DNA of 59,554 bases from Candidatus Omnitrophota bacterium (lineage in GTDB: Bacteria; Omnitrophota; Gorgyraeia; Zapsychrales; JBDRMG01): contig JBDRMG010000043.1 of NCBI GenBank assembly GCA_043812495.1, forward strand, positions 1 to 59,554. The letters are read 5' to 3'. Both the position numbers and the translations under genes were made by a program. Under the pieces are notes generated by a model. The model saw only the letters and a list, made by a program, of their open reading frames with translations, did no database searches and was not told the DNA's origin. Below, piece by piece: positions 8,848-49,660 of this stretch (the first letter of the stretch is position 1; each line of letters opens with the position of its first letter).

Positions 8848-9192
8848 TTAAAATCGGCGTGATCGCACGTAGCTTTGAATGCCCTCTCGGGCATTAGAGG
8901 ATTCATTGACAAATTCAACGCCGGCGCGGTAGCGGTCCGAATAAGGAACTTGCTGAACCCACGCTACGCGGCCGGTCAAGTCGACAACATGGGGAACATC
9001 TTGAAGCTTAAGGCGCATCGCTATTTCAGTATGAAGAGGGACAAAATCGTTCATGCTGATTTTGATTCCGCCCTCGCTGAGATCACTAGCCAGACATCCG
9101 CCAAACTTGCCCTGTTCTTTGAACTGGTAATGAACAGGCTCTTGGTAGCGAACGCGTTTAAATCTTCTTTTCTCTAAATATTCAGTTTCCAT
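8848..9192 (-). CDS. PilZ-domain protein
   Basis: RRFKR and DLSEGG motifs; start reassigned to METEY (ATG 9192). Confidence 0.88.
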   Translation of the reverse strand: METEYLEKRRFKRVRYQEPVHYQFKEQGKFGGCLASDLSEGGIKISMNDFVPLHTEIAMRLKLQDVPHVVDLTGRVAWVQQVPYSDRYRAGVEFVNESSNAREGIQSYVRSRRF

Positions 9193-9247
9193 AATAAAAA
9201 ATCCACGACCTCTTAACTTTGAGATGCCGTGGCTTTCATCCAATTTA

Positions 9248-10148: not shown

Positions 10149-10625
10149 ATGAGTATTATTTATGAGGCTCTCAAAAAGACACAATCACAGCTTGAAAAGA
10201 AGCTCAAGGTGCATCATTCGGTCAAAAAAGGAGAAAGGAATACGGTCGTTTGGGTTGCGACTATTTTGGTCTTTATCGGATTTGTCGGTTGCGCCGGAGC
10301 GCTTCTTTATATCATTCTTTTAAAACCGTCTCTCGAGATGGTTTCCGTCCAAAAGCAAACCGAAACTGTGCCTTCTCGAGAAATTATTCCAACTTCCCGT
10401 CAAGACTCCGCGCGAGGGTCAAGGCCATCAAGAAATGATTTACCTGCTTCCGATCTTACTTTAAACGGCATCATTGCCATGGAGGGCGATTATTTTGCCT
10501 TGATCAATAATGAAATTCTTAGAGAGGGAGAATATATTGAAGGCAAGCGGATTGCTAAGATTTCCGTAGATAAGGTTGAGATCGAAGATAACGGACAGTT
10601 GATCATCCTCAAGACTCCCCGCTAG
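10149..10625 (+). CDS. ExeB/GspB-like protein
   Basis: MSIIYEALKK N-terminus, one TM helix, C-terminal LNGI...INNEILREGE domain; directly after exeA. Confidence 0.8.
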   Translation: MSIIYEALKKTQSQLEKKLKVHHSVKKGERNTVVWVATILVFIGFVGCAGALLYIILLKPSLEMVSVQKQTETVPSREIIPTSRQDSARGSRPSRNDLPASDLTLNGIIAMEGDYFALINNEILREGEYIEGKRIAKISVDKVEIEDNGQLIILKTPR

Positions 10626-10633
10626 GATCTGAC

Positions 10634-10757
10634 TCATTTGAAAAGGTTCTTTCTTATTTAGGATGGATGAAAGAACCTGGGCCATTCAATCTTTTTATCA
10701 TCTATTTGTCTTTCTTAAAGTTATGAAGTATTTATCAATCTCAATAAAAATGGCCCA
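10634..10757. repeat. Family C double-inverted-repeat element, copy 1
   Basis: AGGTTCTTTC-15 nt-GAAAGAACCT then TGGGCCATT...AATGGCCCA. Near copy at 25153-25276; expanded copy at 49454-49660. Confidence 0.85.
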
Positions 10758-10776
10758 AAAATTTCCTTGGATCGAC

Positions 10777-11190
10777 TTATCTGGAAGGGCTTTGCTCTAT
10801 GAGGCCATACGATGTCAAAAGATATCGCTTACCGCCGGCTTCAAGCAAGACATCATTCTTTCGTATTTCTAGAACCTTATAATCGCCAATTTCATCATTT
10901 TCCTGAACGAGAATTCCGTTAATAAAGGCATTTTTCGCTGTTTCAGACCAAACAATCCCATTTAAGCTCAGCTCTGTCTTTGGGCGTGTCAATTTCGGAA
11001 CTTCTTGAACGGCTTTCAAGGGCGCAAAGGGATCCTCCCGGCCATACTGGTCTTTGGGCAGCACTCTTTGCTCGGCTAATAATTTTCTTTTCTCGATCCA
11101 CGAAGACTGCTCCTGGGCATCGGATGAACCGGCCTGCCAGACTCCTAAGCACACCCCGCAGATGAGTAATAGTTTGATATTCCTATTCAT
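10777..11190 (-). CDS. PilP-like pilus assembly protein
   Basis: GREDPFAPL followed by LSLNGIVWS; last gene of the PilMN-O series. Confidence 0.65.
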   Translation of the reverse strand: MNRNIKLLLICGVCLGVWQAGSSDAQEQSSWIEKRKLLAEQRVLPKDQYGREDPFAPLKAVQEVPKLTRPKTELSLNGIVWSETAKNAFINGILVQENDEIGDYKVLEIRKNDVLLEAGGKRYLLTSYGLIEQSPSR

Positions 11191-11804
11191 TTTTCTTTCA
11201 AACGATCCGTAGACAGCTTATACATCGCCAACATCAATTCGACGTTGAGGTCTTGCGACTCTTGCCGGCCTAAGCTAATTTTGAAATCTTCAATACTGAT
11301 CAATTTCGGCTGCTTGGCGAGGGAGACGAGAAAATTGATCAGAGATTTGAAATCGCCCCGGTAGCGAACCTGAACGATGGATTTGGCATAAACGGATACA
11401 AATTCATCATTCACATCGGAAGGGGCGAGAACGTCTTCTTTAATAGGCTTAATAAAAGTGATCTTTCCCCCTGCTTCTTCGGTGAAATAATTGAGCTGTT
11501 TGAGAAAAAGGCTGGCTTCCTCATCCGTAAAGAATTTTTTCCATCGCGCTTCAATTTGAGACTGAACCCGCACAAATTCTTCCTTTAAGGGCATCAAAGA
11601 CTGCAATTTTTCTCCCCCGAGTTTTAAGACAAACTTCTGATTACCCCTTTGCCGCTGTAAGGTTGTTAAGTTGGCAAGCGTTGGCGTAATGACTTTAGCA
11701 AAGAGCAAAAGACACATCAAGCAAGTCAAAATAACAGCCATGGTCTTCTGATGCTGAGGGTCTTTTAAAAATATTTTCTTTAATTGTTTTGATGAGCTGG
11801 CCAT
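11187..11804 (-). CDS. PilO-like protein
   Basis: TM helix, coiled coil, C-terminal YRGDFKSLINFL...LISIEDF pattern; position after PilMN. Confidence 0.8.
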   Translation of the reverse strand: MASSSKQLKKIFLKDPQHQKTMAVILTCLMCLLLFAKVITPTLANLTTLQRQRGNQKFVLKLGGEKLQSLMPLKEEFVRVQSQIEARWKKFFTDEEASLFLKQLNYFTEEAGGKITFIKPIKEDVLAPSDVNDEFVSVYAKSIVQVRYRGDFKSLINFLVSLAKQPKLISIEDFKISLGRQESQDLNVELMLAMYKLSTDRLKEK

Positions 11805-11819
11805 CTTAATATTTCTTCT

Positions 11820-13367
11820 CTATGGCTTTCTTACGGCCTTCTCTTGTGTTTTTAACTTGCCGGTGATGGTGTAATAGGCAAATTCTTGGTTCTCCTGCTT
11901 ATCTTGGATCACGCCTAATTTCACATTCTCAAAATACGGAGATTCCTTTAACGTACGCTCAAAATTAAATGCAGCCTCTTGGGATAAGGCTTCCCCGGCA
12001 AGATTCATGGAATAATCCGCCGTAATATTCAAAGACAACAGCCGAGCGTCTTTGGGAATGATGGCTTGAATTTCCTCTAAAACATCATCCAATGACCTCT
12101 GGTGAACTTCCTCAAAAAATTGTTCCTGAAGACGCATTTCTTCGACATTTTTCTGGCTTTTTCTCTCAAGATCAATCAAATCAGCATATTGCGCCGGCAA
12201 ATCGTCTACTTGACTTTGAAGAGTAATGATTTCTTTCTTAAGGGTATTGATCCTTAAGCGTAAAGAAACAAAAAATAAGCTTAGAGCCATCACCAAAAAG
12301 ACAGAAAAGAATGCAATCCTCTTCAGTCGCTTTTTCATCTCGTTAAAGCGGATCGCTTCAACCGGACAAAGATCCAGGTTGAGAGGAAATTCACCCAAAC
12401 CCAATCCTTTCATGGATAAACCGATCACCCGTGCCAAATACTGGTTGTGATCTTGCCTTTGAAAGCCCCCTACCTTTTCGTCTTTGGGAATAAAATCCAG
12501 AGGGTCGGCGATATCCATGGAAATGCCGTTGATGGACAGCTTTTCATCCGGACTTCGACGTAAACGAGAAATGCTCTGAACTTCACCGGCAAGAACAATC
12601 TTTTCCACTTCCGCCTGAGAACCAAACTTGGAGTGATAATACTGAATGACATTGTCTAATTCCTGAATCAATTTAGCCAAGAATGGTTTCATTTCTTGAT
12701 CATTGGACAGCCCCTGATCCAATGTATGCGTATAAAACAATCTGTTGTCTTTATAAATATTGATGACGGTGCTGCCGGCATCAACGATGACTGTCACCAC
12801 AGCCTGACCCGAGGCGGTCTTGATTGAGCCCTCAAACAGGGCCCTTTGCGCCGCCAATGAATTATCATCAATACCGACAAGATTCAACCGCGCTTCTTGC
12901 GTCATTTGAACATAGCTATCCACCAAAGATTTCTTTGCAGCCGCGATCAAAACCACTGCTTGCTTGACTCCGGCTTCGCTCGGTTGGTCCGCCACCTGAT
13001 AATCGCTGATGGTTTCAAAACCCGCAAAAACGACAAATTTACTGATTTGTGTTTTGACGGCTTCTTTGAGGGCGCGATCGGACATGTGCGCAAAACGACT
13101 CAAATGCAAGACAACATCCGCGCCTCGACAACCCATGATCACGTCTTTGGTGCTAATGCCTTCGCGCGCCAACAACTTCCTGACGCTTTGGCCTAGAACT
13201 TTTGGCTGGATAATAACGCCGTCTTCGATTGCTCCCAGAGGCGTTGGCAGTGAAGCCAAGCGAGCAATCACCAATCCTTTGACAGCTTTCTTGACTACTG
13301 CGACATAGATCATCTGCGGATTGATATCAAGACCGATAGCGATTTTTCTCTTCAATGCTTTTTTCAT
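11820..13367 (-). CDS. PilM-PilN fusion protein
   Basis: Actin-like PilM N-terminal part (IGLDI, IVDAGSTV, IVLAGE), then NLDLCP-TM-coiled coil and a PilN domain (LAGEA...LKESPYFENV). Confidence 0.85.
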   Translation of the reverse strand: MKKALKRKIAIGLDINPQMIYVAVVKKAVKGLVIARLASLPTPLGAIEDGVIIQPKVLGQSVRKLLAREGISTKDVIMGCRGADVVLHLSRFAHMSDRALKEAVKTQISKFVVFAGFETISDYQVADQPSEAGVKQAVVLIAAAKKSLVDSYVQMTQEARLNLVGIDDNSLAAQRALFEGSIKTASGQAVVTVIVDAGSTVINIYKDNRLFYTHTLDQGLSNDQEMKPFLAKLIQELDNVIQYYHSKFGSQAEVEKIVLAGEVQSISRLRRSPDEKLSINGISMDIADPLDFIPKDEKVGGFQRQDHNQYLARVIGLSMKGLGLGEFPLNLDLCPVEAIRFNEMKKRLKRIAFFSVFLVMALSLFFVSLRLRINTLKKEIITLQSQVDDLPAQYADLIDLERKSQKNVEEMRLQEQFFEEVHQRSLDDVLEEIQAIIPKDARLLSLNITADYSMNLAGEALSQEAAFNFERTLKESPYFENVKLGVIQDKQENQEFAYYTITGKLKTQEKAVRKP

Positions 13368-18989: not shown

Positions 18990-19322
18990 TCATGGATGGG
19001 CATGAGCGGCCGCATCAACCCGATTGTTTGTTGCATTATATGTATAAACTGTTGCGAAGGGGCAAGTGGGTACTTCGCCAAAATAATCGGTGTTCTGAAG
19101 GACGTCTGTATTGAAAGAAGCGTTATCAACCGGATAAGCTCCTGTCCTTAAGCGAAAAAGTTCAATCTGGCTGTTAATAATCGAAATATTAGCACGATCT
19201 GTGTCTATCTGTGATTGTCTTATGGTACGGAAAATTCTTGGAATGGCCAGCCCGGCTAACGCGGCCAAAACAATAACAACAAACAAAACTTCAATCAGTG
19301 TAAATGCTTTTTTTCTGTTCAT
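18990..19322 (-). CDS. Major pilin/pseudopilin (GspG/ComGC-like)
   Basis: KKAFTLIEVL, ELFRLRTGAYP; strong RBS AGGAGG. Confidence 0.88.
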   Translation of the reverse strand: MNRKKAFTLIEVLFVVIVLAALAGLAIPRIFRTIRQSQIDTDRANISIINSQIELFRLRTGAYPVDNASFNTDVLQNTDYFGEVPTCPFATVYTYNATNNRVDAAAHAHP

Positions 19323-19413: not shown

Positions 19414-20616
19414 TTAGGCGCCTGATATTTGTTGAATCAAGTCGAAAATCGGAAAATAAACAGCCATGGCAATAAATCCGACAACAGCGGCCAAAATGGC
19501 TGTCAAAAGCGGCTCAACAGTCACAACAATTCGCTTGATCAAGATATCAATATCCCGATCAAGCGAATTGGCATTTTTCTCAAGCATGGAATCCAATGTC
19601 CCGCTTTCCTCGCCGGCCATCATCATTTGCGCCGTGGTTGCGGGAAAAATATTTTGATTCATCAAGGGTGCCGATATCAAGCCTCCGTTTTTAACGCTCT
19701 CTCTCATTTGTCCGACAATCTTCTCAGCGGACGTATTTCCAATCACTTTATTGGCCACGTCAAGGGCTTCCAGGGCCGGAATGCCGCTTGAAAGCATATC
19801 CCCAAGTGTGCGAATAAAACGAGAAACAGCAGCCAAGCGATTCAGCTTGCCAAAAACAGGCATCTTCAGTTTCGCCTCGTCGATCCATTGGCGGAATTTC
19901 GCCAAATGCTTTATGCGGGAATAGACAAAAACAACGCCACCTATCAAAGACAACACAGCCCACCAATACCGGCGGACAAGAAAACTGATAAAAATTAAAG
20001 TCCGTGTCGGCCCGGGCAAAACTATTTTCATTTGAGTATAAACCTTGCTAAAAATTGGGACAATGACAATAATCAAAAATGTCACGACCAAACAAGCCAG
20101 GATGCCGACCAAAACCGGATATGCAAAAGCGGATTGGACCTTTTGCCGTAAATCATGCTGACGTTCCAAGTGAATAGCCAATCGATCCAAGACTTTTCCT
20201 AAATAACCGCCGGTTTCTCCGGCCTTAATCATACCGATAAAAAATTCAGAAAATATTTCTGGATGTTTGGCTAAGGCCTGCGAAAAGGCGCTTCCGCCTT
20301 CGATGCTAAAACCGATATCTTGAACAATATCCTTTAAGGCGGGATTATCCACCTGCCGTTCTAGAGCCTGAAGCGATTTCAAAAGAGGAATGCCCGCGCT
20401 GACCAAATCCGCCAACTGTTGCGTGAGAGTCACTAAGTCGGTATTTGATATGCGCCGCTTTCTTGAAAATATAGATTTTCTTTCTTTCGATAAAGAAACG
20501 ATCAAAAGACCGACTTCGTTTAATTTCGCCGTGACTTGATCCTCGCCGACCGCATCCATGCTCCCTTTGTAAATCTTTCCCGTATTATCTTTGGCGGTAT
20601 ATTGAAATCTAGGCAT
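19414..20616 (-). CDS. pilC: Pilus platform protein PilC/GspF
   Basis: MPRFQYTA start, two T2SSF domains, KAGETGG, AGEESG. Confidence 0.93.
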   Translation of the reverse strand: MPRFQYTAKDNTGKIYKGSMDAVGEDQVTAKLNEVGLLIVSLSKERKSIFSRKRRISNTDLVTLTQQLADLVSAGIPLLKSLQALERQVDNPALKDIVQDIGFSIEGGSAFSQALAKHPEIFSEFFIGMIKAGETGGYLGKVLDRLAIHLERQHDLRQKVQSAFAYPVLVGILACLVVTFLIIVIVPIFSKVYTQMKIVLPGPTRTLIFISFLVRRYWWAVLSLIGGVVFVYSRIKHLAKFRQWIDEAKLKMPVFGKLNRLAAVSRFIRTLGDMLSSGIPALEALDVANKVIGNTSAEKIVGQMRESVKNGGLISAPLMNQNIFPATTAQMMMAGEESGTLDSMLEKNANSLDRDIDILIKRIVVTVEPLLTAILAAVVGFIAMAVYFPIFDLIQQISGA

Positions 20617-22180
20617 TGTTATCCTCGGCGCTGACATAAATGACGCGCTTGACTTCCTCAAATGTTGAAATCTTATTTACGACCTTCCCAACGCCGTTGG
20701 CTTGCAAGGTCTTCATGCCTTCTTGGACAGCGAGTTCTTTTATTTCTGTTGAGGATTTCCTTTCTAATACAAGTTTTTGAATTGCCGGAGTCACCCGCAT
20801 CACCTCAAAGACAGCCACGCGTCCCCGAAAACCCGTTTGATAACAATAATCGCAGCCTTTTCCCTTGGCGAGCTTAATCTGATTTTGAAGATTCAGTTGA
20901 AGTTCTTTTAATTCTTCTGCGCTAGCCGTATACTCGCCCTGACATTCGGGACAGATGACACGCACTAATCTCTGGCTAATGGCTCCGATCACCGTCGACG
21001 ATATTAAAAACGGTTCGATATCCATATCCAATAATCTTGTGACGGCGCTCGGCGCATCGTTGGTATGCAAGGTGCTTAAGACAAGGTGGCCGGTGAGGGC
21101 CGCCTGAATCGCAATTTCCGCGGTCTCTTTATCTCTGATTTCACCGACCATGATCACGTCGGGATCCTGGCGGAGAATCGTGCGTAAACCGTTACTGAAC
21201 GTCATATCCGAGGACGGATCAACCTGAATCTGCGTGATGCGATCGAGCTGGTACTCGACCGGATCTTCAATCGTGACAATATTTAATTTTTTGGCATCAA
21301 ACTGGCTCAGAGCCGAATAAAGCGTTGTGGTCTTGCCGCTTCCGGTGGGGCCTGTGACCAAAATCATTCCGTACGGTTTTGTGATCAGGGAACGAAACAC
21401 TTTCTCATCCGGCTCATTGAGTCCCAGTTTTTCAAGACTTAAGAGCATGGAGCTTCGGTCAAGAATGCGGATCACGACCTTTTCTCCGTTGATCGCTTTC
21501 ATCGTTGAAATTCTAAAATCATAATCCTTTTTATCTTTCTTAATCGACAGATGGCCGTCCTGGGAACGCCTTTTTTCTGTAATATCCATATTCGAAAGGA
21601 CTTTGATGCGCGAAACAACCGCCGCTTCGATATGTTTAGGGATCTTCATAATATCATGCAAGATGCCGTCCACGCGGTAACGGACCATCATCTCAGGATC
21701 TTGCGGTTCCAGGTGGATATCGCTAGCCTTCGCCGTAATGGCTCCGTAAATAAAATCGTTCACGAGACGGACAATGGGAATATCTTCGACCTTGCCGATC
21801 TCTTTAATGTCTGAATCCTGCGCTTCCTTTTGGGTCTCTCTCATCTTTTTGATGCGCATATCGATGAGGTCCTGCTTGCTTTTGGCATCCACCTTATAAT
21901 ACTTGTTCATGGCCTGCTGGACTTCTTTTTCGAGTGCGATCATGGGTTTGATTCGATTTCCGGTGAGAAGTTCGATTTCATCGCGGGCGGCAAGATCCTG
22001 AGGGGATACAAAAGCAACATGCAGGACGTTCTCTTCGAGTTTGACAGAAATGGCTTTATGCTGGCGGGCGATGTTTTCCGGTAAAAGATGGACAATTTGC
22101 GGATCCAGCTCATGTTCTGAGAGCTTGATATAGTCAAAACCTTTTTGCTTGGCGAGCTCTTTGGCTTCTTGTTCGGTCAT
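20609..22180 (-). CDS. pilB: Pilus extension ATPase PilB/GspE
   Basis: GPTGSGKTTT, LRQDPDVIMVGEIRD, HTND, CPEC...CDYC zinc motif. Confidence 0.95.
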   Translation of the reverse strand: MTEQEAKELAKQKGFDYIKLSEHELDPQIVHLLPENIARQHKAISVKLEENVLHVAFVSPQDLAARDEIELLTGNRIKPMIALEKEVQQAMNKYYKVDAKSKQDLIDMRIKKMRETQKEAQDSDIKEIGKVEDIPIVRLVNDFIYGAITAKASDIHLEPQDPEMMVRYRVDGILHDIMKIPKHIEAAVVSRIKVLSNMDITEKRRSQDGHLSIKKDKKDYDFRISTMKAINGEKVVIRILDRSSMLLSLEKLGLNEPDEKVFRSLITKPYGMILVTGPTGSGKTTTLYSALSQFDAKKLNIVTIEDPVEYQLDRITQIQVDPSSDMTFSNGLRTILRQDPDVIMVGEIRDKETAEIAIQAALTGHLVLSTLHTNDAPSAVTRLLDMDIEPFLISSTVIGAISQRLVRVICPECQGEYTASAEELKELQLNLQNQIKLAKGKGCDYCYQTGFRGRVAVFEVMRVTPAIQKLVLERKSSTEIKELAVQEGMKTLQANGVGKVVNKISTFEEVKRVIYVSAEDNNA

Positions 22181-22189
22181 TTTTCTTCT

Positions 22190-22561
22190 TTAAGATGTCA
22201 ACAGGGCCTTGGCCACTTTCTCGAGTAAAGAAACAGGCGTAAAGGGTTTGACAATGTAGTCCACAGCGCCAAGATCAAGGGCTTGAGACACGCTGTCGCT
22301 TTCGGCTTTGGCGGTAAACATAATCACGGGGATAAATTTTGTCTCTTCACTTTCCTTGAGTTTTCCTAAGGCCTCATACCCGTCCATTTGCGGCATCATG
22401 ATATCCAGAATGATAAGATCTGGCTTCTCCTGCTTGGCTTTGGCAATGCCGTCTTTTCCATCGATGGCGGTTATCACATCATAACCGCTGGCCTTCAGGC
22501 GCGATTGGACCATTTTGACGATATTCATTTCATCATCAATCACAAGAATTCTTTTGGACAC
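22190..22561 (-). CDS. Single-domain response regulator (CheY-like)
   Basis: ILVIDDE, LDIMMP, TAK, VKP. Confidence 0.95.
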   Translation of the reverse strand: MSKRILVIDDEMNIVKMVQSRLKASGYDVITAIDGKDGIAKAKQEKPDLIILDIMMPQMDGYEALGKLKESEETKFIPVIMFTAKAESDSVSQALDLGAVDYIVKPFTPVSLLEKVAKALLTS

Positions 22562-25117
22562 TTAAAGCCTCCCTATTTTCTTCATCAATTCTTTCTGCGT
22601 GGTCCCGTCATCGGGGAATGTGACCATCTTGGCAATGATTTGTATCTTTGAGCCAAGACCTTGCGACGCCAAATACTCTTCGATATCCTTGATCATGCGT
22701 CCCGCCACCAGAGGCGCGTTTTCTTTTGTTGTTAAAGGCAGCATCATCAGGATCGCATCTGTGCTCTTCAGGACAAGATCGGCTTTTCGCCGCAGGCTTT
22801 TTCTGATTATATCATTAAAATGAGCAAGCACATCCTGTGTTTTTTCTTTTCCCAGGGTTTTCTCAACCGTTAAGAAGTTTGCTATCTCAAAAACGATCAG
22901 GGACAGGGATTCTCTGAACCGAATGGCTTCTTTGATGCCATTGGTAACATATTCTTCGAAGGCCTGATCCACCGAAATTCTGGGTAAGTCAAAGATAAAT
23001 TTTGTTCCCTCATTGAGTTTGCTTTCGACCTTGATGTGCCCGCCGTGTAGTTCAATGATCCCTTTGCAGATCGATAAGCCCAATCCCGTTCCTTTGCCTC
23101 CGGGCCCGTAAGGCCGGTCAAATTGCTCAAATTTTCCAAAGACCTTGGGTAGGTTTTCTTCGGCAATCCCGCGGCCCGTATCCTCAAATTGACATTCAAG
23201 GGCGCGTTCCTTATCCTCTAGGGAAATCCCGATATATCCTTTTTCCGTGAAATTCAACGCATTATCCATAAGGCTCTCGAACACTTGGGTGATTCTCTCA
23301 TGATCAAGAAAAAGTTCAATATTATCGTGTGAAAACTGAGTCTTGGCTTGCAGTCCTTTTTCCTCGCAGGACAAGCGATACTTCTTGACAACTTGCCGAA
23401 CAAGATCCGTCACGCTGACCATGACGCGGCGCAAGGTAATTTTTTCAGCTTCTAAGTTGGAAATATCTAATAATTCGTTGACCACATGCCGCAGGCGGTC
23501 AATCCCTTCAAACGACATATGCAGATATTCTTTCTGCTCATCGTTGAGTCCGCCGTGCATCTCCTCGAGCACCTGACTAACGCCCTCTTGAATAATCGTC
23601 ATGGGAGTGCGCAGTTCATGGGAAACCGTGCTGATAAAATCGGACTTCAACTGATCGAGCTTGCGGATTTCCTCTGTTTTGCCTTCAAGTTCGCGCAACA
23701 ATTCTTTGTTCTTGCGGTCTTTTTTAGCCAACTCAAAAAGAAGCATATCCCGTTCTTCCTTGTCTTGACGCAATCGGGATATGGGTTGCAGGTCATCCGA
23801 TGATTCGCTTTTCGTTTCTTGAGTTTTGATGGTTTCATCAAAAATATTTTTTTCTTCCCTGAGTCCCTCAGCTAAATCAACCTTCTGAAGCAATTCCTTT
23901 GCGGTTTGGCCGTCTTCTGGAAAATTCGCGACCTTTTGAGAGATATCAATGACCTTGTCCATATTTTCTTGGGTCAAATATTGAAAAAAACTATTCTGGA
24001 TTCTTGCCGAAAGCATCAGGGCATCCTTTTTCTCTGTCTGTGTCAGAACCATGAGAATCGAATTCTTCCCTTCGAGTGACAAATCAGCCTTGCGTCGAAG
24101 GTTGGTTTTGGCAATCTTGCGCAAGCCTTCAATCATCAAGGACAAACGTGCCCGATCCATATTATCAAACGCCTGCGCGGCATTTTGGATATGAAAGACG
24201 ACAATCGACAAAACACCTTTTTGGCGACTGGCGTTTTTGATGCCACTACGCACATATTCCTGAAATATCTGCTCCACAGAAAGTTTTGGCAACGTGAATG
24301 TAAATGTTGTTCCCTTGTTGACTTCGCTTTTGACTTTGATCTGACCTCCGTGCAGCTCGACAATTCCCTGACAAATCGATAAGCCCAGGCCCGTTCCTTT
24401 CTCTTTTGTCAGGGCCGACTGGTCAAATTTCTGAAATTTCCCAAAGACCAAGGGCAAATTTTCCTTCGCGATGCCGAACCCCGTATCCGCGACGCTGCAG
24501 ACAATCACATCGTTTCTGTCCAAAACGGACAAAGCGATCTGTCCGGTTTGAGTAAATTTAAAGGCATTGCCGATGAGATTGATAAAGACCTGAATGATCT
24601 TGTCGCGGTCAACATAGAGCTCTATGTGTTCTTTGTTGAATTCGGTTTTGATGTTCAAGCCAAGATCTTTCGCTTGCGGAAGAAAGGTCGTTTTGACGCC
24701 TTTGACTAAATCGACTATGTCTACGGCTTCTCGACGAATGTCGGCTCTTTCCGCTTCGAGGCGGGAGATATCCAAAAGATTCTCAACGATTCTACGCAAG
24801 CGGTCAATATCCGACAGCGACATGGACAAAAATTCTTTCTGTTCCTGCGTCGTGACTCCCAGAAGGCCCTCCAAGACCTGATGAATCCCTTCGCGAATGC
24901 TCGTTAAGGGCGTGCGCAATTCGTGAGAAACGACAGAAACAAATTCGGATTTCGCTTCGGCAAATTTCTTGAGCTCCTCATTTTTCTTTTCCAGCTCTCG
25001 ATAAAGAACCCTGATCCCTTCGTTGGTCTTCTTTAAACCGACTTGGGTATATTCGGCTTCTTTCTTGAGCTGCTCGATTTCTTTTTCAAGATCTTGAATA
25101 TGTGAATGTTCGCTCAT
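22562..25117 (-). CDS. Tandem (HisKA-HATPase-degenerate GGDEF)x2 histidine kinase
   Basis: Two H-boxes (SHELRTPL, SHELRTPM), two complete N/G1/F/G2 sets, two GGDEF-like folds with RRKAD; no TM helices. Confidence 0.85.
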   Translation of the reverse strand: MSEHSHIQDLEKEIEQLKKEAEYTQVGLKKTNEGIRVLYRELEKKNEELKKFAEAKSEFVSVVSHELRTPLTSIREGIHQVLEGLLGVTTQEQKEFLSMSLSDIDRLRRIVENLLDISRLEAERADIRREAVDIVDLVKGVKTTFLPQAKDLGLNIKTEFNKEHIELYVDRDKIIQVFINLIGNAFKFTQTGQIALSVLDRNDVIVCSVADTGFGIAKENLPLVFGKFQKFDQSALTKEKGTGLGLSICQGIVELHGGQIKVKSEVNKGTTFTFTLPKLSVEQIFQEYVRSGIKNASRQKGVLSIVVFHIQNAAQAFDNMDRARLSLMIEGLRKIAKTNLRRKADLSLEGKNSILMVLTQTEKKDALMLSARIQNSFFQYLTQENMDKVIDISQKVANFPEDGQTAKELLQKVDLAEGLREEKNIFDETIKTQETKSESSDDLQPISRLRQDKEERDMLLFELAKKDRKNKELLRELEGKTEEIRKLDQLKSDFISTVSHELRTPMTIIQEGVSQVLEEMHGGLNDEQKEYLHMSFEGIDRLRHVVNELLDISNLEAEKITLRRVMVSVTDLVRQVVKKYRLSCEEKGLQAKTQFSHDNIELFLDHERITQVFESLMDNALNFTEKGYIGISLEDKERALECQFEDTGRGIAEENLPKVFGKFEQFDRPYGPGGKGTGLGLSICKGIIELHGGHIKVESKLNEGTKFIFDLPRISVDQAFEEYVTNGIKEAIRFRESLSLIVFEIANFLTVEKTLGKEKTQDVLAHFNDIIRKSLRRKADLVLKSTDAILMMLPLTTKENAPLVAGRMIKDIEEYLASQGLGSKIQIIAKMVTFPDDGTTQKELMKKIGRL

Positions 25118-25152
25118 GAAGAAATTGTTCAGTTAAAATGGGAATAAGAAAT

Positions 25153-25276
25153 TCATTTAAAAAGTTCTTTCTTATTTAGGGTCAATGAAAGAACCTGGGC
25201 CATTCAATCTTTTTCATCATCTATTTGTATTTCTTTAAATTATGAGATATTTATCAATCCCAATAAGAATGGCCCA
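25153..25276. repeat. Family C element, copy 2
   Basis: Colinear with 10634-10757; ends 1 nt before the receiver stop codon. Confidence 0.85.
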
Positions 25277-25277
25277 T

Positions 25278-25643
25278 TTAAGACGTGGCCAAGAGACGAT
25301 CAACCTTTTCTATCAATTTTTCGCTTTCAAACGGCTTGACGACGTATTCGGTGACTCCCTCGACTTTAAAGATATCCTGAAGCTGATCTTTGGCCGTGAG
25401 AACAATGATCGGAGTCTTTTTAAGGTCAGCAATCTTTTTAAATTCAAGGACAAACGTGTATCCGTCCATCCGAGGCATCATAATATCAAGAATGACAAGA
25501 TCAGGTTTTTCCTTTTTGACCTTCTCCAGGCCTTCTTGACCGTCTTTTGCTGAGATGACCTGGTAATGGTTAAGCTCAAGACGGGCCTTCACCACATCAA
25601 CCAGATCCGGCTCATCGTCAATCACTAAGATTTTCTTACTCAT
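25278..25643 (-). CDS. Single-domain response regulator (CheY-like)
   Basis: ILVIDDE, LDIMMP, TAK, VKP; RBS AAGGAGG. Confidence 0.95.
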   Translation of the reverse strand: MSKKILVIDDEPDLVDVVKARLELNHYQVISAKDGQEGLEKVKKEKPDLVILDIMMPRMDGYTFVLEFKKIADLKKTPIIVLTAKDQLQDIFKVEGVTEYVVKPFESEKLIEKVDRLLATS

Positions 25644-25725: not shown

Positions 25726-26823
25726 TTATTCCATGAATAATGTGATAGCCTTCTTGATGAGTGAACCAGGGATATTTTCTATTACACGCACTTTTCCAAT
25801 TTGCGTCGGCACGACAAATCGATTGCGAGGCCCCTTAAACTTTTTGTCGTGCGCCATCATCGCCAGAATTCGATTCAAGGGAATGGATGTAATTTTTTGC
25901 GGAAGACCGACATTGGTTAATAAGTCGTTCAAGGCTTGGAAGTGTTTTTTTGCTAACAGGTCCATCTCAAGAGCTATGTGCGCAGCGATTCTCATTCCTA
26001 AGCCAATGGCCTCTCCGTGATGATACTTTGTATAGCGGCCGGCGGCTTCAAGGGCGTGACCCGCGGTATGTCCAAAATTCAAGATCGTCCGGATTCCTTT
26101 GATCTCTCGCTCATCGGTCGCAACGACCTTGGCTTTCATCCGGCTGCACGCTAGCACAATTTTCATCAAAACATGCGCATCGTACGATAAAGCTTTCTTG
26201 TAATTCTTTTGTATATAGATAAAAAGATTTTTGTCGCTAATAACGCCGTATTTGATAGCTTCAGCCAAACCATTTCGCATCTGACGCTGACTTAGAGTTG
26301 TTAAGGTCGCGACATCCGACCAGACCATGCGGGGCTGATAAAATGCGCCGATCAGGTTCTTCCCGATAGCAAGATCAATCGCCGTCTTGCCTCCGATCGC
26401 GGAATCAATTTGCGCCAAAAATGTCGTCGGGACCTGAATATAGGGAACACCCCGCTTGTAAACGGCAGCAAGAAAACCTGCCAAATCCCCAATCACGCCG
26501 CCGCCCAAGGCCACAATAAAGATTTTTCGATGGATGTCATACTTCGCGATTCTCTCCAGAAGCCCAACAGCAACCTTGGCGGATTTGCTTTTTTCCGTGT
26601 CCGGTACATGAAAAATTTTAACGGAAAAACCATTTCGTTTTAAACCCGCAATCAATGTTCGGCCATACAGCCGATCGATCATGGGGTTGGTAACAATCAC
26701 CGCATCCTGCCCGCACGCTAAAGACATGATCGCCTCTCCGCACTGGCCCAGACTGTCATAGCCAGTGATAATCGGGTAGGAATTTTTCTTGAGGTTAACG
26801 GTTACGGTCTTAAGAATCGCCAT
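25726..26823 (-). CDS. aroB: 3-dehydroquinate synthase
   Basis: ALGGGVIGDLAGF, QVPTTFLAQIDSAIGGKT, LNFGHTAGHALE. Confidence 0.97.
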   Translation of the reverse strand: MAILKTVTVNLKKNSYPIITGYDSLGQCGEAIMSLACGQDAVIVTNPMIDRLYGRTLIAGLKRNGFSVKIFHVPDTEKSKSAKVAVGLLERIAKYDIHRKIFIVALGGGVIGDLAGFLAAVYKRGVPYIQVPTTFLAQIDSAIGGKTAIDLAIGKNLIGAFYQPRMVWSDVATLTTLSQRQMRNGLAEAIKYGVISDKNLFIYIQKNYKKALSYDAHVLMKIVLACSRMKAKVVATDEREIKGIRTILNFGHTAGHALEAAGRYTKYHHGEAIGLGMRIAAHIALEMDLLAKKHFQALNDLLTNVGLPQKITSIPLNRILAMMAHDKKFKGPRNRFVVPTQIGKVRVIENIPGSLIKKAITLFME

Positions 26824-26849
26824 CCAAAAATCCTCACGCAAAGAAACAA

Positions 26850-28553: not shown

Positions 28554-29606
28554 TTAATCTTCTAGGTAACTCAAGTAATTTCTGAACTTTTTTTGCTTGG
28601 AGAGTTCCGTGAAGGCTTTCACGACAACGGGGTCAAATTGAGTTCCGCTATTGCGTTTCAATTCTCCGAGTGCTTCAGGAATAGATAAGGCCTTTTTGTA
28701 GGGACGCAAACGGATCATGGCTTCAAACGTCGTAACAACAGACATCACCCTTGCGCCGAGAGGGATCTGTTCTTTCTTGAGCCCCAGGGGATAACCTGTC
28801 CCGTCATACTTTTCGTGATGGTAAAGAATGATCGGCAAGACAGGCTTTAAAAAAGCGACAGGCTTAATCAATTCAACGCTCTTGGCGGGGATATCCCGCA
28901 TCAATTGAAATTCTTCGGGAGACAACTGGCTTGACTTCGATAAAATCTCATAGGGCACGTCGATAGAGCCGGCATCGTGCAGCATGCTCGCATATTGAAG
29001 ATTTTGGATTTGCTCTTGCCCCATGTTGAGCTTTTCGGCCAAACTTTTAACAATACGAAAGTAGGCCGGGTCATGGGCGGTCACGCTGGGAGTTCGCTTT
29101 TCAAGTAGTTTTCCGATGGACTTAATGCTTCCCAAAATAATTCTCTGCTGCTCTTCATAGAGTTGCAAATTCTTTATAGCCGTAACAGCCTGCTCGGCAA
29201 TAACAGACAATATTTCCCTGTCAAACTCAGTAAATTTCTTTCCCTTCTTATCTCGGCTGATAAAGATAGCCCCAATATTATCATCCGCAACCAGAGGAAG
29301 TCCGATGAGGCGATGGCGATGAATGGATCGGCCCAAGGCAACTTCTATCTCTTGTTCTGTGATGCGCTTCAAATCTGCTTTTTTCTCAATGAGAACATGG
29401 CCTTTTTGATTATAAATTGAAATGAGTTTAATCTTTTTACTAGTCTCATCGAGCAAATAAATACTGCAGGAACTCGATTTGATGAGCTGGCAAACAAGAC
29501 GCGTCAGACGCAATAAGAGCTCTTTGACATTATACGTCGAATTCACCAAACGATACACCATGTGCACCGCGGAAAGGGCATATTGATATTTTTGTGTCGT
29601 AATCAT
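28554..29606 (-). CDS. GAF + HD-GYP domain protein, apparently degenerate
   Basis: GAF (FTEFDREILSVIAEQ), LHD, HHEKYDGTGYP, RPYK. Confidence 0.88.
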   Translation of the reverse strand: MITTQKYQYALSAVHMVYRLVNSTYNVKELLLRLTRLVCQLIKSSSCSIYLLDETSKKIKLISIYNQKGHVLIEKKADLKRITEQEIEVALGRSIHRHRLIGLPLVADDNIGAIFISRDKKGKKFTEFDREILSVIAEQAVTAIKNLQLYEEQQRIILGSIKSIGKLLEKRTPSVTAHDPAYFRIVKSLAEKLNMGQEQIQNLQYASMLHDAGSIDVPYEILSKSSQLSPEEFQLMRDIPAKSVELIKPVAFLKPVLPIILYHHEKYDGTGYPLGLKKEQIPLGARVMSVVTTFEAMIRLRPYKKALSIPEALGELKRNSGTQFDPVVVKAFTELSKQKKFRNYLSYLED

Positions 29607-48765: not shown

Positions 48766-49418
48766 ATCATTTCCATATTGAAAATTTTAGAAAAACCGCG
48801 GATCATTTCTTTCTTGACCAAAGCACACTCCGTGGGTTGTCCGCACAAAGAATGCATGGTGGTCATGGCTGTATCCAGACCGCACGGCTTGATCATTGAA
48901 AAATAGTTTAGGTCGGTATTGACGTTGAGGGCCAATCCGTGAAACGTCACCCACTGGCGAACGCCGATACCGATCGAAGCGATCTTGCCTTTTGGGGTAA
49001 AGACACCTCGTTGTCCGTTCCTGCGGAAAGCGACAATCGCAAAGGACAATAACGCGTCCATGACCACCTGCTCCAATTTTTCCATATATTCCTTAAGGTC
49101 CTTACGCCATAACTTTAAAGGAAAGATCGGATAGATAACCATCTGACCCGGACCATGAAAAGTAACCTCTCCTCCCCGATTCGTGCGGATAATATCTATT
49201 TTGTTCTTCATGATTTTCTCTTGAGGCCGCAAGAAATTTTTCTCTGAAGCCAGTCGCCCCAAAGTAAAAACTGGCGGGTGCTCGCAAAAAAGCAATTGCG
49301 GTTGTTCCTCTCGGACAACATCCCCAAGAATCTTGAGCTGATGACCATAGGCCTCTGGGTAAGAAATAAGACCGAAGTCCATGACCCGACACTTGATCGC
49401 AGTAGCAACATTCATCAT
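48744..49418 (-). CDS. lipB: Octanoyltransferase
   Basis: EHPPVFTLGR, RGGEVTFHGPGQ, KIASIG, HGLALN, PCG. Confidence 0.96.
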   Translation of the reverse strand: MMNVATAIKCRVMDFGLISYPEAYGHQLKILGDVVREEQPQLLFCEHPPVFTLGRLASEKNFLRPQEKIMKNKIDIIRTNRGGEVTFHGPGQMVIYPIFPLKLWRKDLKEYMEKLEQVVMDALLSFAIVAFRRNGQRGVFTPKGKIASIGIGVRQWVTFHGLALNVNTDLNYFSMIKPCGLDTAMTTMHSLCGQPTECALVKKEMIRGFSKIFNMEMIYSPSPY

Positions 49419-49453
49419 GTAGAGTTATTTTATCAGAAAATCGCAAAAATAAA

Positions 49454-49660
49454 AAAAGGTTCTTTCTTGTTTAGGGTGAATGAAAGAACCTGATTCCAGA
49501 GATTATTAAGTGATTAAACAGATTTGGTTTCCGGCGATATCAATAAATCTGTGTAATCAATTTTATAATCATTGTCATCAGGGCCATTCAATGATTTTTG
49601 CTATCTAATCTTGTTACAATAGATTATGAATATTCCTTCATCCTGAATAAGAATGGCCCA
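49454..49660. repeat. Family C element, copy 3, with an 89-bp hairpin insert
   Basis: Both family C inverted repeats present, separated by the extra segment 49492-49580. Confidence 0.8.

Follow-up and report, generated by a model that had tools for sequence, protein, structure and literature searches.

A doubled histidine kinase with two degenerate GGDEF tails in a pilus operon of an Omnitrophota bacterium

Described systems closest to the doubled kinase

To our knowledge, few kinases read c-di-GMP directly, and SgmT is the only studied one with a dead GGDEF tail that bears an I-site. PopA of Caulobacter and other I-site-only GGDEF receptors, as cited in the SgmT study, combine a degenerate A-site with an intact I-site; PopA parallels the kinase described here in the (here predicted) use of the I-site as a c-di-GMP receptor, but is a response regulator and not a kinase (PMC3509222). 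In the SgmT/DigR system of Myxococcus xanthus, the SgmT tail carries R763xxD766 and R794, which match R777xxD780 with R807 and R342xxD345 with R372 in the 851-aa kinase reported here (PMC3509222), and both kinases are linked to type IV pilus-dependent behaviour, in the present case by the operon. SgmT differs in its GAF and receiver domains, single transmitter, DNA-binding partner and the tail sequence GGGVF, and binding of c-di-GMP altered its localisation, not autophosphorylation or phosphotransfer (PMC3509222). The present kinase, on the other hand, has two transmitters, two tails, stand-alone CheY-like partners and a place in a pilB operon; with neither GAF nor REC, it does not show the GAF-HisKA-HATPase-REC-GGDEF architecture of the SgmT family. 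The analogy with SgmT drawn in an earlier note on this DNA therefore calls for caution.

Busch et al. in 2009 are said to have described the second transmitter of TodS as a phosphotransfer domain. As for the present kinase, TodS/TodT of Pseudomonas putida and RedCDEF of M. xanthus place two HisKA/HATPase transmitters in one pathway, and for both TodS and RedCDEF such a phosphotransfer role of the second transmitter has been shown (PMC3018481). Non-hybrid two-transmitter proteins accounted for 2 of 15,704 in a 2010 census (PMC3018481). TodS differs, however, in having an internal receiver and PAS sensors, the Red transmitters are separate proteins, and GGDEF tails and a connection with a pilus motor are absent from both systems. 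No REC or PAS domain precedes or separates the two modules of the 851-aa kinase. Receivers that lack a DNA-binding output and target the extension machinery of type IV pili are known in Pseudomonas (PilG/PilH) and Synechocystis (PixE-PilB1), where their input comes from CheA-type chemosensory kinases or from photoreceptors, whereas in the locus described here a HisKA kinase with GGDEF tails would feed the receivers.

The locus and the duplicated kinase modules

The window is the whole of the stretch analysed, 59,554 nt of contig JBDRMG010000043.1 in assembly GCA_043812495.1 (Candidatus Omnitrophota bacterium). The relevant features are the following.

25278-25643, minus strand: RRup, a single-domain receiver of 121 aa (Pfam Response_reg, 94 bits; D9/D10, D53, T83, K103)
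25118-25277, minus strand: spacer of 160 nt with a repeated element (sequence and predicted fold)
22562-25117, minus strand: kinase reading frame of 851 aa (ORF and Pfam domains)
23879-25117, minus strand: kinase module 1 (aa 1-413), with coiled coil 1-54, HisKA 55-123 (H65), HATPase_c 170-278 and dead GGDEF 283-413
within 23879-25117, minus strand: tail motifs of module 1, I-site R342/D345/R372 and GKNSI replacing GGDEF
23813-23878, minus strand: linker of 22 aa (aa 414-435, DLAEGLREEKNIFDETIKTQET), with no counterpart in the family
22565-23812, minus strand: kinase module 2 (aa 436-851), with coiled coil, HisKA 490-558 (H500), HATPase_c 605-713 and dead GGDEF 718-848
within 22565-23812, minus strand: tail motifs of module 2, I-site R777/D780/R807 and STDAI replacing GGDEF
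22190-22561, minus strand: RRdown, a single-domain receiver of 123 aa (Pfam Response_reg, 107 bits; D9/D10, D53, T83, K105)
20609-22180, minus strand: PilB/GspE-type assembly ATPase of 523 aa (T2SSE 441 bits; MshEN, N1E part, 68 bits)
19414-20661, minus strand: PilC/GspF platform protein of 415 aa (T2SSF 190 bits, two repeats)
18990-19322, minus strand: prepilin-type (N-methyl) pilin or pseudopilin of 110 aa (N_methyl and T2SSG matches)

The kinase combines two complete coiled-coil/HisKA/HATPase_c/GGDEF-like modules in one chain, and Pfam accordingly finds HisKA, HATPase_c and GGDEF twice each (HisKA with 114.9 bits over two stretches). The phospho-accepting residues H65 and H500 both lie in SHELRTP (64-70 and 499-505), and each module retains its Mg-binding Asn (N184, N619) as well as the G1, F and G2 boxes, which bears out the earlier reading of two full transmitters. 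Also borne out is the lack of sensor and membrane domains: the Pfam scan finds no PAS, GAF, REC or other sensor domain in the protein, and a top 19-residue Kyte-Doolittle mean of 1.2 means that no transmembrane segment is expected. A remnant of a Rossmann-like sensor domain was found neither upstream of the kinase nor elsewhere in the genome.

The two modules align without gaps at 45% identity over 400 residues (E 1e-114), and their DNA reaches 67-72% identity in short patches only, which excludes a collapsed or duplicated repeat of the assembly, in agreement with the earlier judgement that such an artefact is unlikely, the halves being well diverged. Of 73 positions that are near-invariant in the family, each half retains 67, which implies selection on both. 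Family members terminate 3-10 residues past an ELLxKI motif, and module 2 opens with K436-SESS where module 1 has M1-SEHS; the linker between them probably derives from an intergenic spacer that came to be translated when two genes fused. Each half is 49-50% identical to other family members and 45% to the other half, and the two are sisters in the best tree, but with a support of only 22%. The 851-aa protein represents a true tandem duplication, with fusion, of a single member of this kinase family. Only one such sequence, from a single contig, was found: no second doubled kinase occurs in 30 related genomes, no doubled relative among 1.84 billion representative proteins, and of 119 homologues MAFFT aligns 118 with module 2, none of them doubled. 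The doubled form is new, without a second example in public data, and uncharacterised, the latter in line with the earlier note; the single-module form is common in the phylum.

Degenerate GGDEF tails and a possible c-di-GMP input

Single-module histidine kinases with a dead GGDEF tail are a very large family, common in Omnitrophota, with a coiled coil (xGLKKTNEGI...), HisKA, HATPase_c and a tail of ~135 aa ending in FPxDG...ELL as hallmarks. The doubled kinase is 42-50% identical to hundreds of members, its two tails score 154 and 157 bits with the family tail HMM, and the family clade includes both modules (support 99).

The earlier note would have been refuted by C-terminal domains of another fold, but AlphaFold2, Foldseek and Pfam agree on GGDEF. 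The Pfam score is 41.8 bits for tail 2 and 21.5 bits for tail 1 alone (cut-off 23.8), the tail models have pLDDT values of 89.2 and 89.4, and among the best 50 PDB matches listed by Foldseek all 50 are GGDEF domains for tail 2 and 49 for tail 1 (TM 0.6-0.78), where the remaining one is PelD. The tails are therefore GGDEF folds, and they have a dead A-site and a retained I-site triad of Arg, Asp and Arg. The motif LRRKAD survives in both, as first noticed from the sequence (R342/D345 and R777/D780), with R372 and R807 as the second I-site Arg. In a HMMER alignment to WspR, the RxxD of the tails aligns with RSSD, and the GGEEF position corresponds to G350-KNSI in tail 1 and S785-TDAI in tail 2. 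Since the GG[DE]EF position reads GKNSI and STDAI, neither tail has the signature of an active diguanylate cyclase; the loss of the motif had been recognised before, but with strings (EGKNS, KSTDA) that are one residue off. In the same alignment, the positions of tail 2 that we take to be GTP contacts in GGDEF structures are A, L, E and Q. The spacing from the I-site Asp to the former A-site is four residues, compared with five in the canonical case.

Because the kinase has no sensor domain, we propose that its input is c-di-GMP, predicted from the retained triad to bind to the I-site in both tails. Across the 243 family tails compared, conservation is highest at positions that include the Arg/Asp/Arg triad, which also forms the I-site in PleD and SgmT: the residue equivalent to D780 is kept in 89% and R/K807 in 96%, and an Arg at -4 and/or -3 occurs together with D780 in 86%, while none of the 243 has a GGDEF motif. 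A related arrangement in four genomes (G001, G008, G017 and G025) lends independent comparative support to a c-di-GMP input, since an intact PilZ domain (RxxxR and DxSxxG) is found there at the same kinase-receiver-pilB-pilC position, in kinases of the type PAS-HK-(GGDEF-like without RxxD)-PilZ that are followed by RR, pilB and pilC. Their degenerate tail gives no match when our tails are compared with these kinases by BLASTP, but is detected by the family HMM (E 1e-10 to 5e-4). These kinases thus share with the 851-aa protein the operon position, the kinase core, a homologous dead GGDEF domain and a C-terminal module of c-di-GMP receptor type. They differ in their PAS sensor, single transmitter and tail without RxxD, with c-di-GMP predicted to be read via PilZ, whereas the 851-aa kinase lacks PAS and PilZ, keeps the I-site and is doubled. 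The exchange of an I-site tail for a PilZ tail is most simply explained by two c-di-GMP readouts.

An alternative, possible but unlikely, is that the dead tails are not c-di-GMP receptors at all, and serve structure or dimerisation, receiver docking or the sensing of other nucleotides, with the signal arriving via other proteins, for instance a dCache kinase and the receiver that precedes the family kinase. Because RxxxD replaces RxxD in 25% of the family tails and the Asp-to-A-site spacing is one residue short, the pocket may bind something else or nothing, and the similar tail without any RxxD in the PilZ-bearing relatives indicates a further reason for the retention of the fold. A dCache-HAMP-HK and a receiver precede the family member in all five distinct Rossmann-type loci examined (L016, L017, L025, L026 and L027, with L028 being a second copy of L027), and such a cassette is also found, unlinked, on contig C8 of the present genome. 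The conservation of the triad and the exchange with PilZ nevertheless speak against this alternative and for c-di-GMP as the ligand of the tails. The gated kinase suggested in the earlier note finds partial backing in the tails and in the PilZ relatives, while ligand binding, phosphotransfer and motor control are still inferred.

The genome carries five intact GG[DE]EF proteins, three HD-GYP proteins and PilZ proteins, with a GAF-HD-GYP protein (28554-29606) and a PilZ protein (8848-9243) in the window. A long (~740-aa) PilB paralogue was considered as a carrier of a receiver and rejected, as the C18 paralogue of the genome has a PilZ-like tail at its end. A strict pattern for the c-di-GMP motif of MshEN matches none of eight PilB N-termini.

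Receivers, pilus motor and modes of action

RRdown is closely tied to its neighbours. Its GTG start, preceded by a GGGAGG Shine-Dalgarno sequence, abuts the kinase stop codon TAA (0 nt), and its end lies 9 nt from the pilB ATG, exactly within the 0-9 nt given earlier. No obvious Shine-Dalgarno sequence precedes the kinase ATG, and a longer N-terminus is ruled out by a TAA five codons 5' of this start. The spacer towards RRup contains the inverted repeat GGGCCATTC...GAATGGCCC, then the hairpin GGTTCTTTC-N15-GAAAGAAC and TTTTT, resembling a terminator; the element recurs, almost identical, at the far end of the pilus operon (10600-10790) and, in part, at 49400-49600. In a promoter and terminator consensus scan, sites were no more numerous than in shuffled sequence. 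The receiver on each side of the kinase is present as claimed, but RRup, 160 nt away and behind a repeated terminator-like element, is not tightly coupled to the kinase.

The ATPase, previously called PilB, stays below the NCBIfam cut-offs for both PilB (TIGR02538, 555 bits against 675.65) and GspE (565.9 bits against 630.25), and lacks the first ~50 residues found in orthologues by N-terminal comparison. A PilB-like role is nonetheless supported by its T2SSE domain and by the genomic context with pilC, pilin and pilM genes.

Both receivers have the CheY-like acidic pair, D53, T83 and Lys listed above. RRup is 61-64% identical to post-kinase receivers of G024, G010 and G004 (clade support 94/96), and by this comparison is the orthologue of the receiver directly 3' of single-module kinases in other Omnitrophota. 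RRdown is 56% identical to RR124 of L016 (sister support 89/88), and is likewise the orthologue of the L016 receiver immediately 5' of pilB. The gene order is RR-HK-(dead GGDEF)-RR-RR-pilB-pilC-pilins-pilMN in L016 and RR-HK-(dead GGDEF)-RR-pilB-pilC-pilins-pilM in L026, both with a single-module kinase, which shows a recurrent cassette of a kinase, one or two CheY-like receivers and pilB-pilC-pilins-pilM. Among the five Rossmann-type loci, pilB adjoins these two only. As L016 already has both receiver types next to single-module kinases, and such kinases are followed by two receivers in G010 and G004, the suggestion of one kinase module per receiver is not required.

The modules have lost different residues. 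Module 2 has S615 and N622 in the N-box where the family has N (99%) and K (97%), and module 1 departs from near-invariant ATP-lid/G2-region residues at K230, Q233, K238 and Q250. This asymmetry fits a division of labour, and the two N-box losses weakly suggest the split into one kinase and one phosphatase that was raised in the earlier note.

We give an even chance to a mechanism in which the sensor-less doubled kinase reads c-di-GMP and sets the state of RRup and RRdown, and in which RRdown acts on PilB/PilC, with the work divided between the modules. Ligand at the tails would shift the kinase/phosphatase balance or the localisation of the transmitters, and a further contribution to the input may come in trans from phosphorylated receivers. 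Modules 1 and 2 would determine the phosphorylation of RRup and RRdown; module 1, with its canonical N-box, is the likelier main autokinase, and module 2 may be biased to phosphatase or phosphotransfer activity. RRdown, translationally coupled to the kinase, would act on the motor, and since it lacks an output domain, direct contact with PilB/PilC is proposed. Against this mechanism stand the unchanged kinase activity of SgmT with c-di-GMP in vitro (PMC3509222), the terminator-like repeat and the lack of an obvious Shine-Dalgarno sequence at the kinase start, the three of five distinct Rossmann-type loci that are not beside pilB, and the RxxxD tails and short spacing noted above.

It is improbable that the locus instead encodes a split four-step relay of the TodS/RedCDEF type (T-R-T-R), in which the phosphate would pass from autophosphorylated H65 of module 1 to RRup, H500, RRdown and so to the pilus motor, with module 2 mainly in phosphotransfer. 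The locus order R-TT-R and the S615/N622 losses, which would fit weak autokinase activity, agree with it, and a second transmitter has been proposed as phosphotransfer domain for two-transmitter, multi-receiver loci (PMC3018481). However, module 2 still has its G1, F and G2 boxes and N619, the internal receiver that 96% of known double-transmitter proteins possess (PMC3018481) is missing here, and RRup lies behind the terminator-like element; the single-module kinase of L016 with both receiver types also means that a relay is not ancestral. Quite improbable, too, is a natural single-chain kinase in which the two DHp domains of one polypeptide would pair into the four-helix bundle for which ordinary kinases need two identical chains. 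The functional asymmetry of the dimer would then be built in, with module 1 contributing the ATP-competent catalytic domain, module 2 a face for phosphatase or phosphotransfer activity, and a separate c-di-GMP-binding tail gating each half; the halves would feed two different CheY-like proteins that steer the pilus motor. It is highly improbable that the long frame joins two adjacent paralogous genes by assembly or sequencing error, or reflects a neutral recent loss of a stop codon: its singleton status, the KSESS/MSEHS relic after the 22-aa spacer and a possible internal start at M458, preceded by AAGGAAG, would suit two former genes, but the frame is open across the junction, the halves are too diverged for repeat misassembly, and both keep most of the near-invariant positions.

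With c-di-GMP-read control of the motor as the preferred reading, the locus is a minimal test object, where the only plausible inputs are two I-site tails and the receivers and motor ATPase are encoded alongside. The doubled kinase bears on the way in which a dead GGDEF tail influences its transmitter, a question that SgmT raises as well, and could show whether the very rare non-hybrid two-transmitter proteins work as intramolecular pseudo-dimers or as internal relays. Members of the Omnitrophota are ultra-small, possibly host-dependent bacteria with many pilus and secretion ATPase paralogues. The present genome would couple different PilB paralogues to c-di-GMP differently, by a PilB-PilZ fusion, a receiver-PilB pair and the kinase-receiver-PilB arrangement, and this wiring offers a handle on the regulation of surface filaments in Omnitrophota.

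Organization of the kinase locus and duplication of the kinase

The kinase gene is located on the reverse strand between genes for two CheY-like single-domain receivers, RRup and RRdown, and upstream of pilus genes, in the following order:

25726-26841, -, aroB, the first gene in the order discussed
25278-25643, -, RRup, receiver of 121 aa
25118-25277, -, spacer of 160 nt between RRup and kinase
22562-25117, -, kinase of 851 aa
22190-22561, -, RRdown, receiver of 123 aa
20609-22180, -, PilB/GspE-type ATPase
19414-20661, -, PilC
18990-19322, -, prepilin-type protein

The GTG start of RRdown, preceded by a GGGAGG Shine-Dalgarno sequence, abuts the kinase stop codon, and 9 nt separate the end of RRdown from the pilB ATG. 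The kinase ATG has no obvious Shine-Dalgarno sequence, and a TAA five codons 5′ of it leaves no possible upstream extension of the ORF. The spacer is a repeated element, composed on the minus strand of an inverted repeat GGGCCATTC...GAATGGCCC and a terminal 9-bp hairpin, GGTTCTTTC-N15-GAAAGAAC, followed by TTTTT. A near-identical copy at 10600-10790 closes the pilus operon, so that the kinase/pilus operon has one copy at either end; a third (49400-49600) has the terminal hairpin alone in common. The repeat is probably terminator-bearing, and because of the hairpin, the T-run and the copy that closes the pilus operon, RRup may share a transcript with aroB instead of with the kinase.

Pfam identifies two sets of HisKA, HATPase_c and GGDEF domains in the kinase, and the two modules align with 45% identity over 400 residues with zero gaps (E 1e-114). 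His65 and His500 are both found within identical SHELRTP boxes, and each half has G1, F and G2 boxes and the Mg-binding Asn; the internal duplication with retention of both phospho-histidines, as proposed in the earlier note, is thereby confirmed. Since DNA similarity between the halves is restricted to two short patches (67–72%), an assembly repeat artefact does not explain the duplication. The absence of sensor and TM domains also holds: only a 54-residue coiled coil precedes the first HisKA domain, and there is no hydrophobic segment in the protein (highest 19-residue Kyte-Doolittle mean, 1.2).

Module 2 opens with K436-SESS, which aligns to M1-SEHS of module 1, and is preceded by a 22-residue stretch (414–435) with no counterpart in the single-module kinases described below. 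This is the sequence pattern that would be expected if tandem genes had fused by read-through of a spacer. The histidine kinase tree gives no date for the duplication. An AAGGAAG sequence is located 7–15 nt upstream of an in-frame ATG at codon M458 (23744-23760), immediately ahead of the module 2 coiled coil; M458 could serve as an internal start from which module 2 is made on its own, or the match could be due to chance, as the coding sequence is rich in GAA and AAG.

[quoted passage not shown] As isolated domains they score 41.8 (tail 2) and 21.5 bits (tail 1) with Pfam GGDEF, where the cut-off is 23.8. AlphaFold2 models built from 50-sequence alignments have pLDDT values of 89.2 and 89.4, and among the best 50 Foldseek matches to each model (E 2e-6 to 8e-4, TM 0.6–0.78), GGDEF domains make up the entire list for tail 2 and 49 entries for tail 1, for which the last is PelD. 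In HMMER alignments, R777-K-A-D780 coincides with the RSSD I-site of WspR, and S785-TDAI with the WspR GGEEF motif with a one-residue gap. In the GGDEF domains of Geobacter (6d9m) and Marinobacter (3ign), the residue aligned with Arg807 is the AERIR-helix Arg; the WspR equivalent is Lys. The module 1 equivalents, through a gapless offset of 435 residues, are R342/D345/R372 and GKNSI. By the WspR alignment, the residues of tail 2 at the Mg- and guanine-binding positions of GGDEF domains are A, L, E and Q, and the tails are thus expected neither to be catalytic nor to bind GTP. The same I-site triad is found in SgmT, where R763xxD766 and R794 correspond to R777xxD780 and R807 (PMC3509222).

The single module represents a large family in Omnitrophota. 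Thousands of proteins match the kinase at 42–50% identity, each spanning just one half, and the named matches among them are from Omnitrophota; in the present genome, the tail occurs solely in the doubled kinase. Among 243 family tails, 89% retain D780 and 96% R/K807; 86% combine D780 with an Arg at −4 and/or −3, 60% have strict RxxD and 25% RxxxD only, and the GGDEF motif is found in none (0/243). Judged by sequence conservation, the family tail is under selection at the I-site. Because of the RxxxD-only tails, and because ungapped alignment to the cyclases of the same genome moves the tail register by one residue, the pocket may not be fully canonical.

Single-module relatives and division of roles

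The closest single-module relatives have an N-terminal Rossmann-like domain that is lacking in the doubled kinase. In seven database proteins (P0002, P0003, P0005, P0011, P0016, P0045 and P0095), the N-terminal ~100 residues are Rossmann-like with GxGxxG and give weak GFO_IDH_MocA/CoA_binding matches; the domain could function in nucleotide or redox sensing. The pilus-operon context is conserved around kinases that have a single module (HK-GGDEF*). The order in locus L016 (GCA_024277375.1) is dCache-HK, RR, RR, HK-GGDEF* (506 aa), RR, RR, pilB, pilC, pilins, pilMN, and in L026 (JGI metagenome) it is RR, HK-GGDEF* (521 aa), RR, pilB, pilC, pilins, pilM. The L016 pilB orthologue (10579-12273) is split into two called ORFs of 305 and 251 aa, which jointly cover the window PilB at 60–69% identity, probably owing to a frameshift or sequencing error in that assembly.

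A dCache-HAMP-HK and a receiver precede the Rossmann-type kinases in all five distinct loci examined (L016, L017, L025, L026 and L027, the last of which is duplicated by L028). In the present genome, the upstream half of the L016 cassette is found unlinked from the doubled kinase, on contig C8 (52017-55937, +), as RR, dCache-HK, RR158, RR121, RR121. The C8 dCache-HK is 47–49% identical to kinases preceding HK-GGDEF* genes elsewhere, and the first RR121, directly after RR158, is 61% identical to the L016 "pre-kinase" receiver. A second receiver-pilB-pilC-pilin locus is located on contig C24 (6984-10801, +); it has no adjacent kinase and a receiver that shares 50% identity with RRdown.

RRup belongs to a clade (support 94/96) of receivers directly following single-module kinases in four other genomes, and RRdown is sister (89/88) to the L016 receiver just upstream of pilB; the third, pre-kinase type (100/100) is absent from the window. 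As both types present stand beside single-module kinases, both are older than the duplication. One kinase module per receiver, as the earlier note had suggested as a possibility, is not needed, since a single module serves both types in L016, and two-channel wiring becomes one of several possibilities.

Each half departs from the family at 6 of 73 columns conserved at ≥85%. In the N-box of module 2, residues 615 and 622 are Ser and Asn (family Asn, 99%, and Lys, 97%), and around the ATP lid and G2 box of module 1 the departures are K230 (Q, 100%), Q233 (R, 89%), K238 (G, 86%) and Q250 (K, 96%). At the DHp positions that we take to determine specificity, H+7, +11, +12 and +15 are identical between the halves and +8 differs, as read by eye. 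The complementary decay would fit a division of labour in which one module is the main autokinase and the other acts as a phosphatase or in phosphotransfer. The same decay leaves room for a TodS/Red-like transmitter-receiver-transmitter-receiver relay through kinase and receivers, a possible wiring that would not, however, be the ancestral one.

c-di-GMP input and rarity of the doubled form

The genome encodes five GG[DE]EF and three HD-GYP proteins, and can thus make and break c-di-GMP; it also has PilZ proteins, including one at 8848-9243 in the window. One of the three HD-GYP proteins, GAF-HD-GYP (HD_5) at 28554-29606 (-), is encoded about 3 kb 5′ of the signalling genes and is a likely c-di-GMP phosphodiesterase. 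A kinase, receiver, pilB, pilC operon occurs in four related genomes (G001, same family; G008, G017 and G025, same order), where the kinase is PAS-HisKA-HATPase_c followed by a more decayed GGDEF-like domain without RxxD, and then PilZ with the consensus motifs RxxxR and DxSxxG intact. I-site tail and PilZ tail consequently alternate at the same operon position, which by analogy lends independent support to a putative c-di-GMP input. Sequence, structure prediction, family conservation and this PilZ analogue together give good support to a putative role of the tails as c-di-GMP receptors.

The window PilB lacks ~50 N-terminal residues that are present in orthologues (L016, L026) and in paralogues from its own and related genomes. 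The N-terminal helical segment is the c-di-GMP-binding part of MshE-type ATPases, so that c-di-GMP input by this segment is unavailable here; the shortened PilB agrees with, without proving, a route through the kinase. A 740-aa PilB paralogue on contig C18 (12458-14680, -) has C-terminal ~130 residues that are PilZ-like by motif (RAYSR for RxxxR, NISAGG for NxSxxG), and if this tail holds, the paralogue would join motor ATPase and c-di-GMP receptor directly in one polypeptide.

In 30 related genomes, no reading frame contains the two modules together. The kinase is a singleton in a word-indexed search of 5.8 billion clusters, with no doubled relative, and an exhaustive search of 1.84 billion representatives likewise gave none (best non-self match 465 bits, self 1828). 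The earlier note gave no characterized case, and across these genomes and both protein searches the architecture is without a second example. Multi-kinase proteins were few: metagenomic proteins with four (P0121) or three (P0207, P0221 and P0224) transmitters, with complete HisKA/HATPase_c, which carry receivers and no GGDEF. In a 2010 census, two-transmitter non-hybrid proteins numbered 2 of 15,704, receivers were present in 96% of double-transmitter proteins, and no protein had more than two transmitters (PMC3018481). The window kinase combines two known kinds, SgmT-like kinases with I-site tails and double-transmitter kinases, and judged by gene order its cassette is one typical of the phylum, which would regulate the pilus motor.
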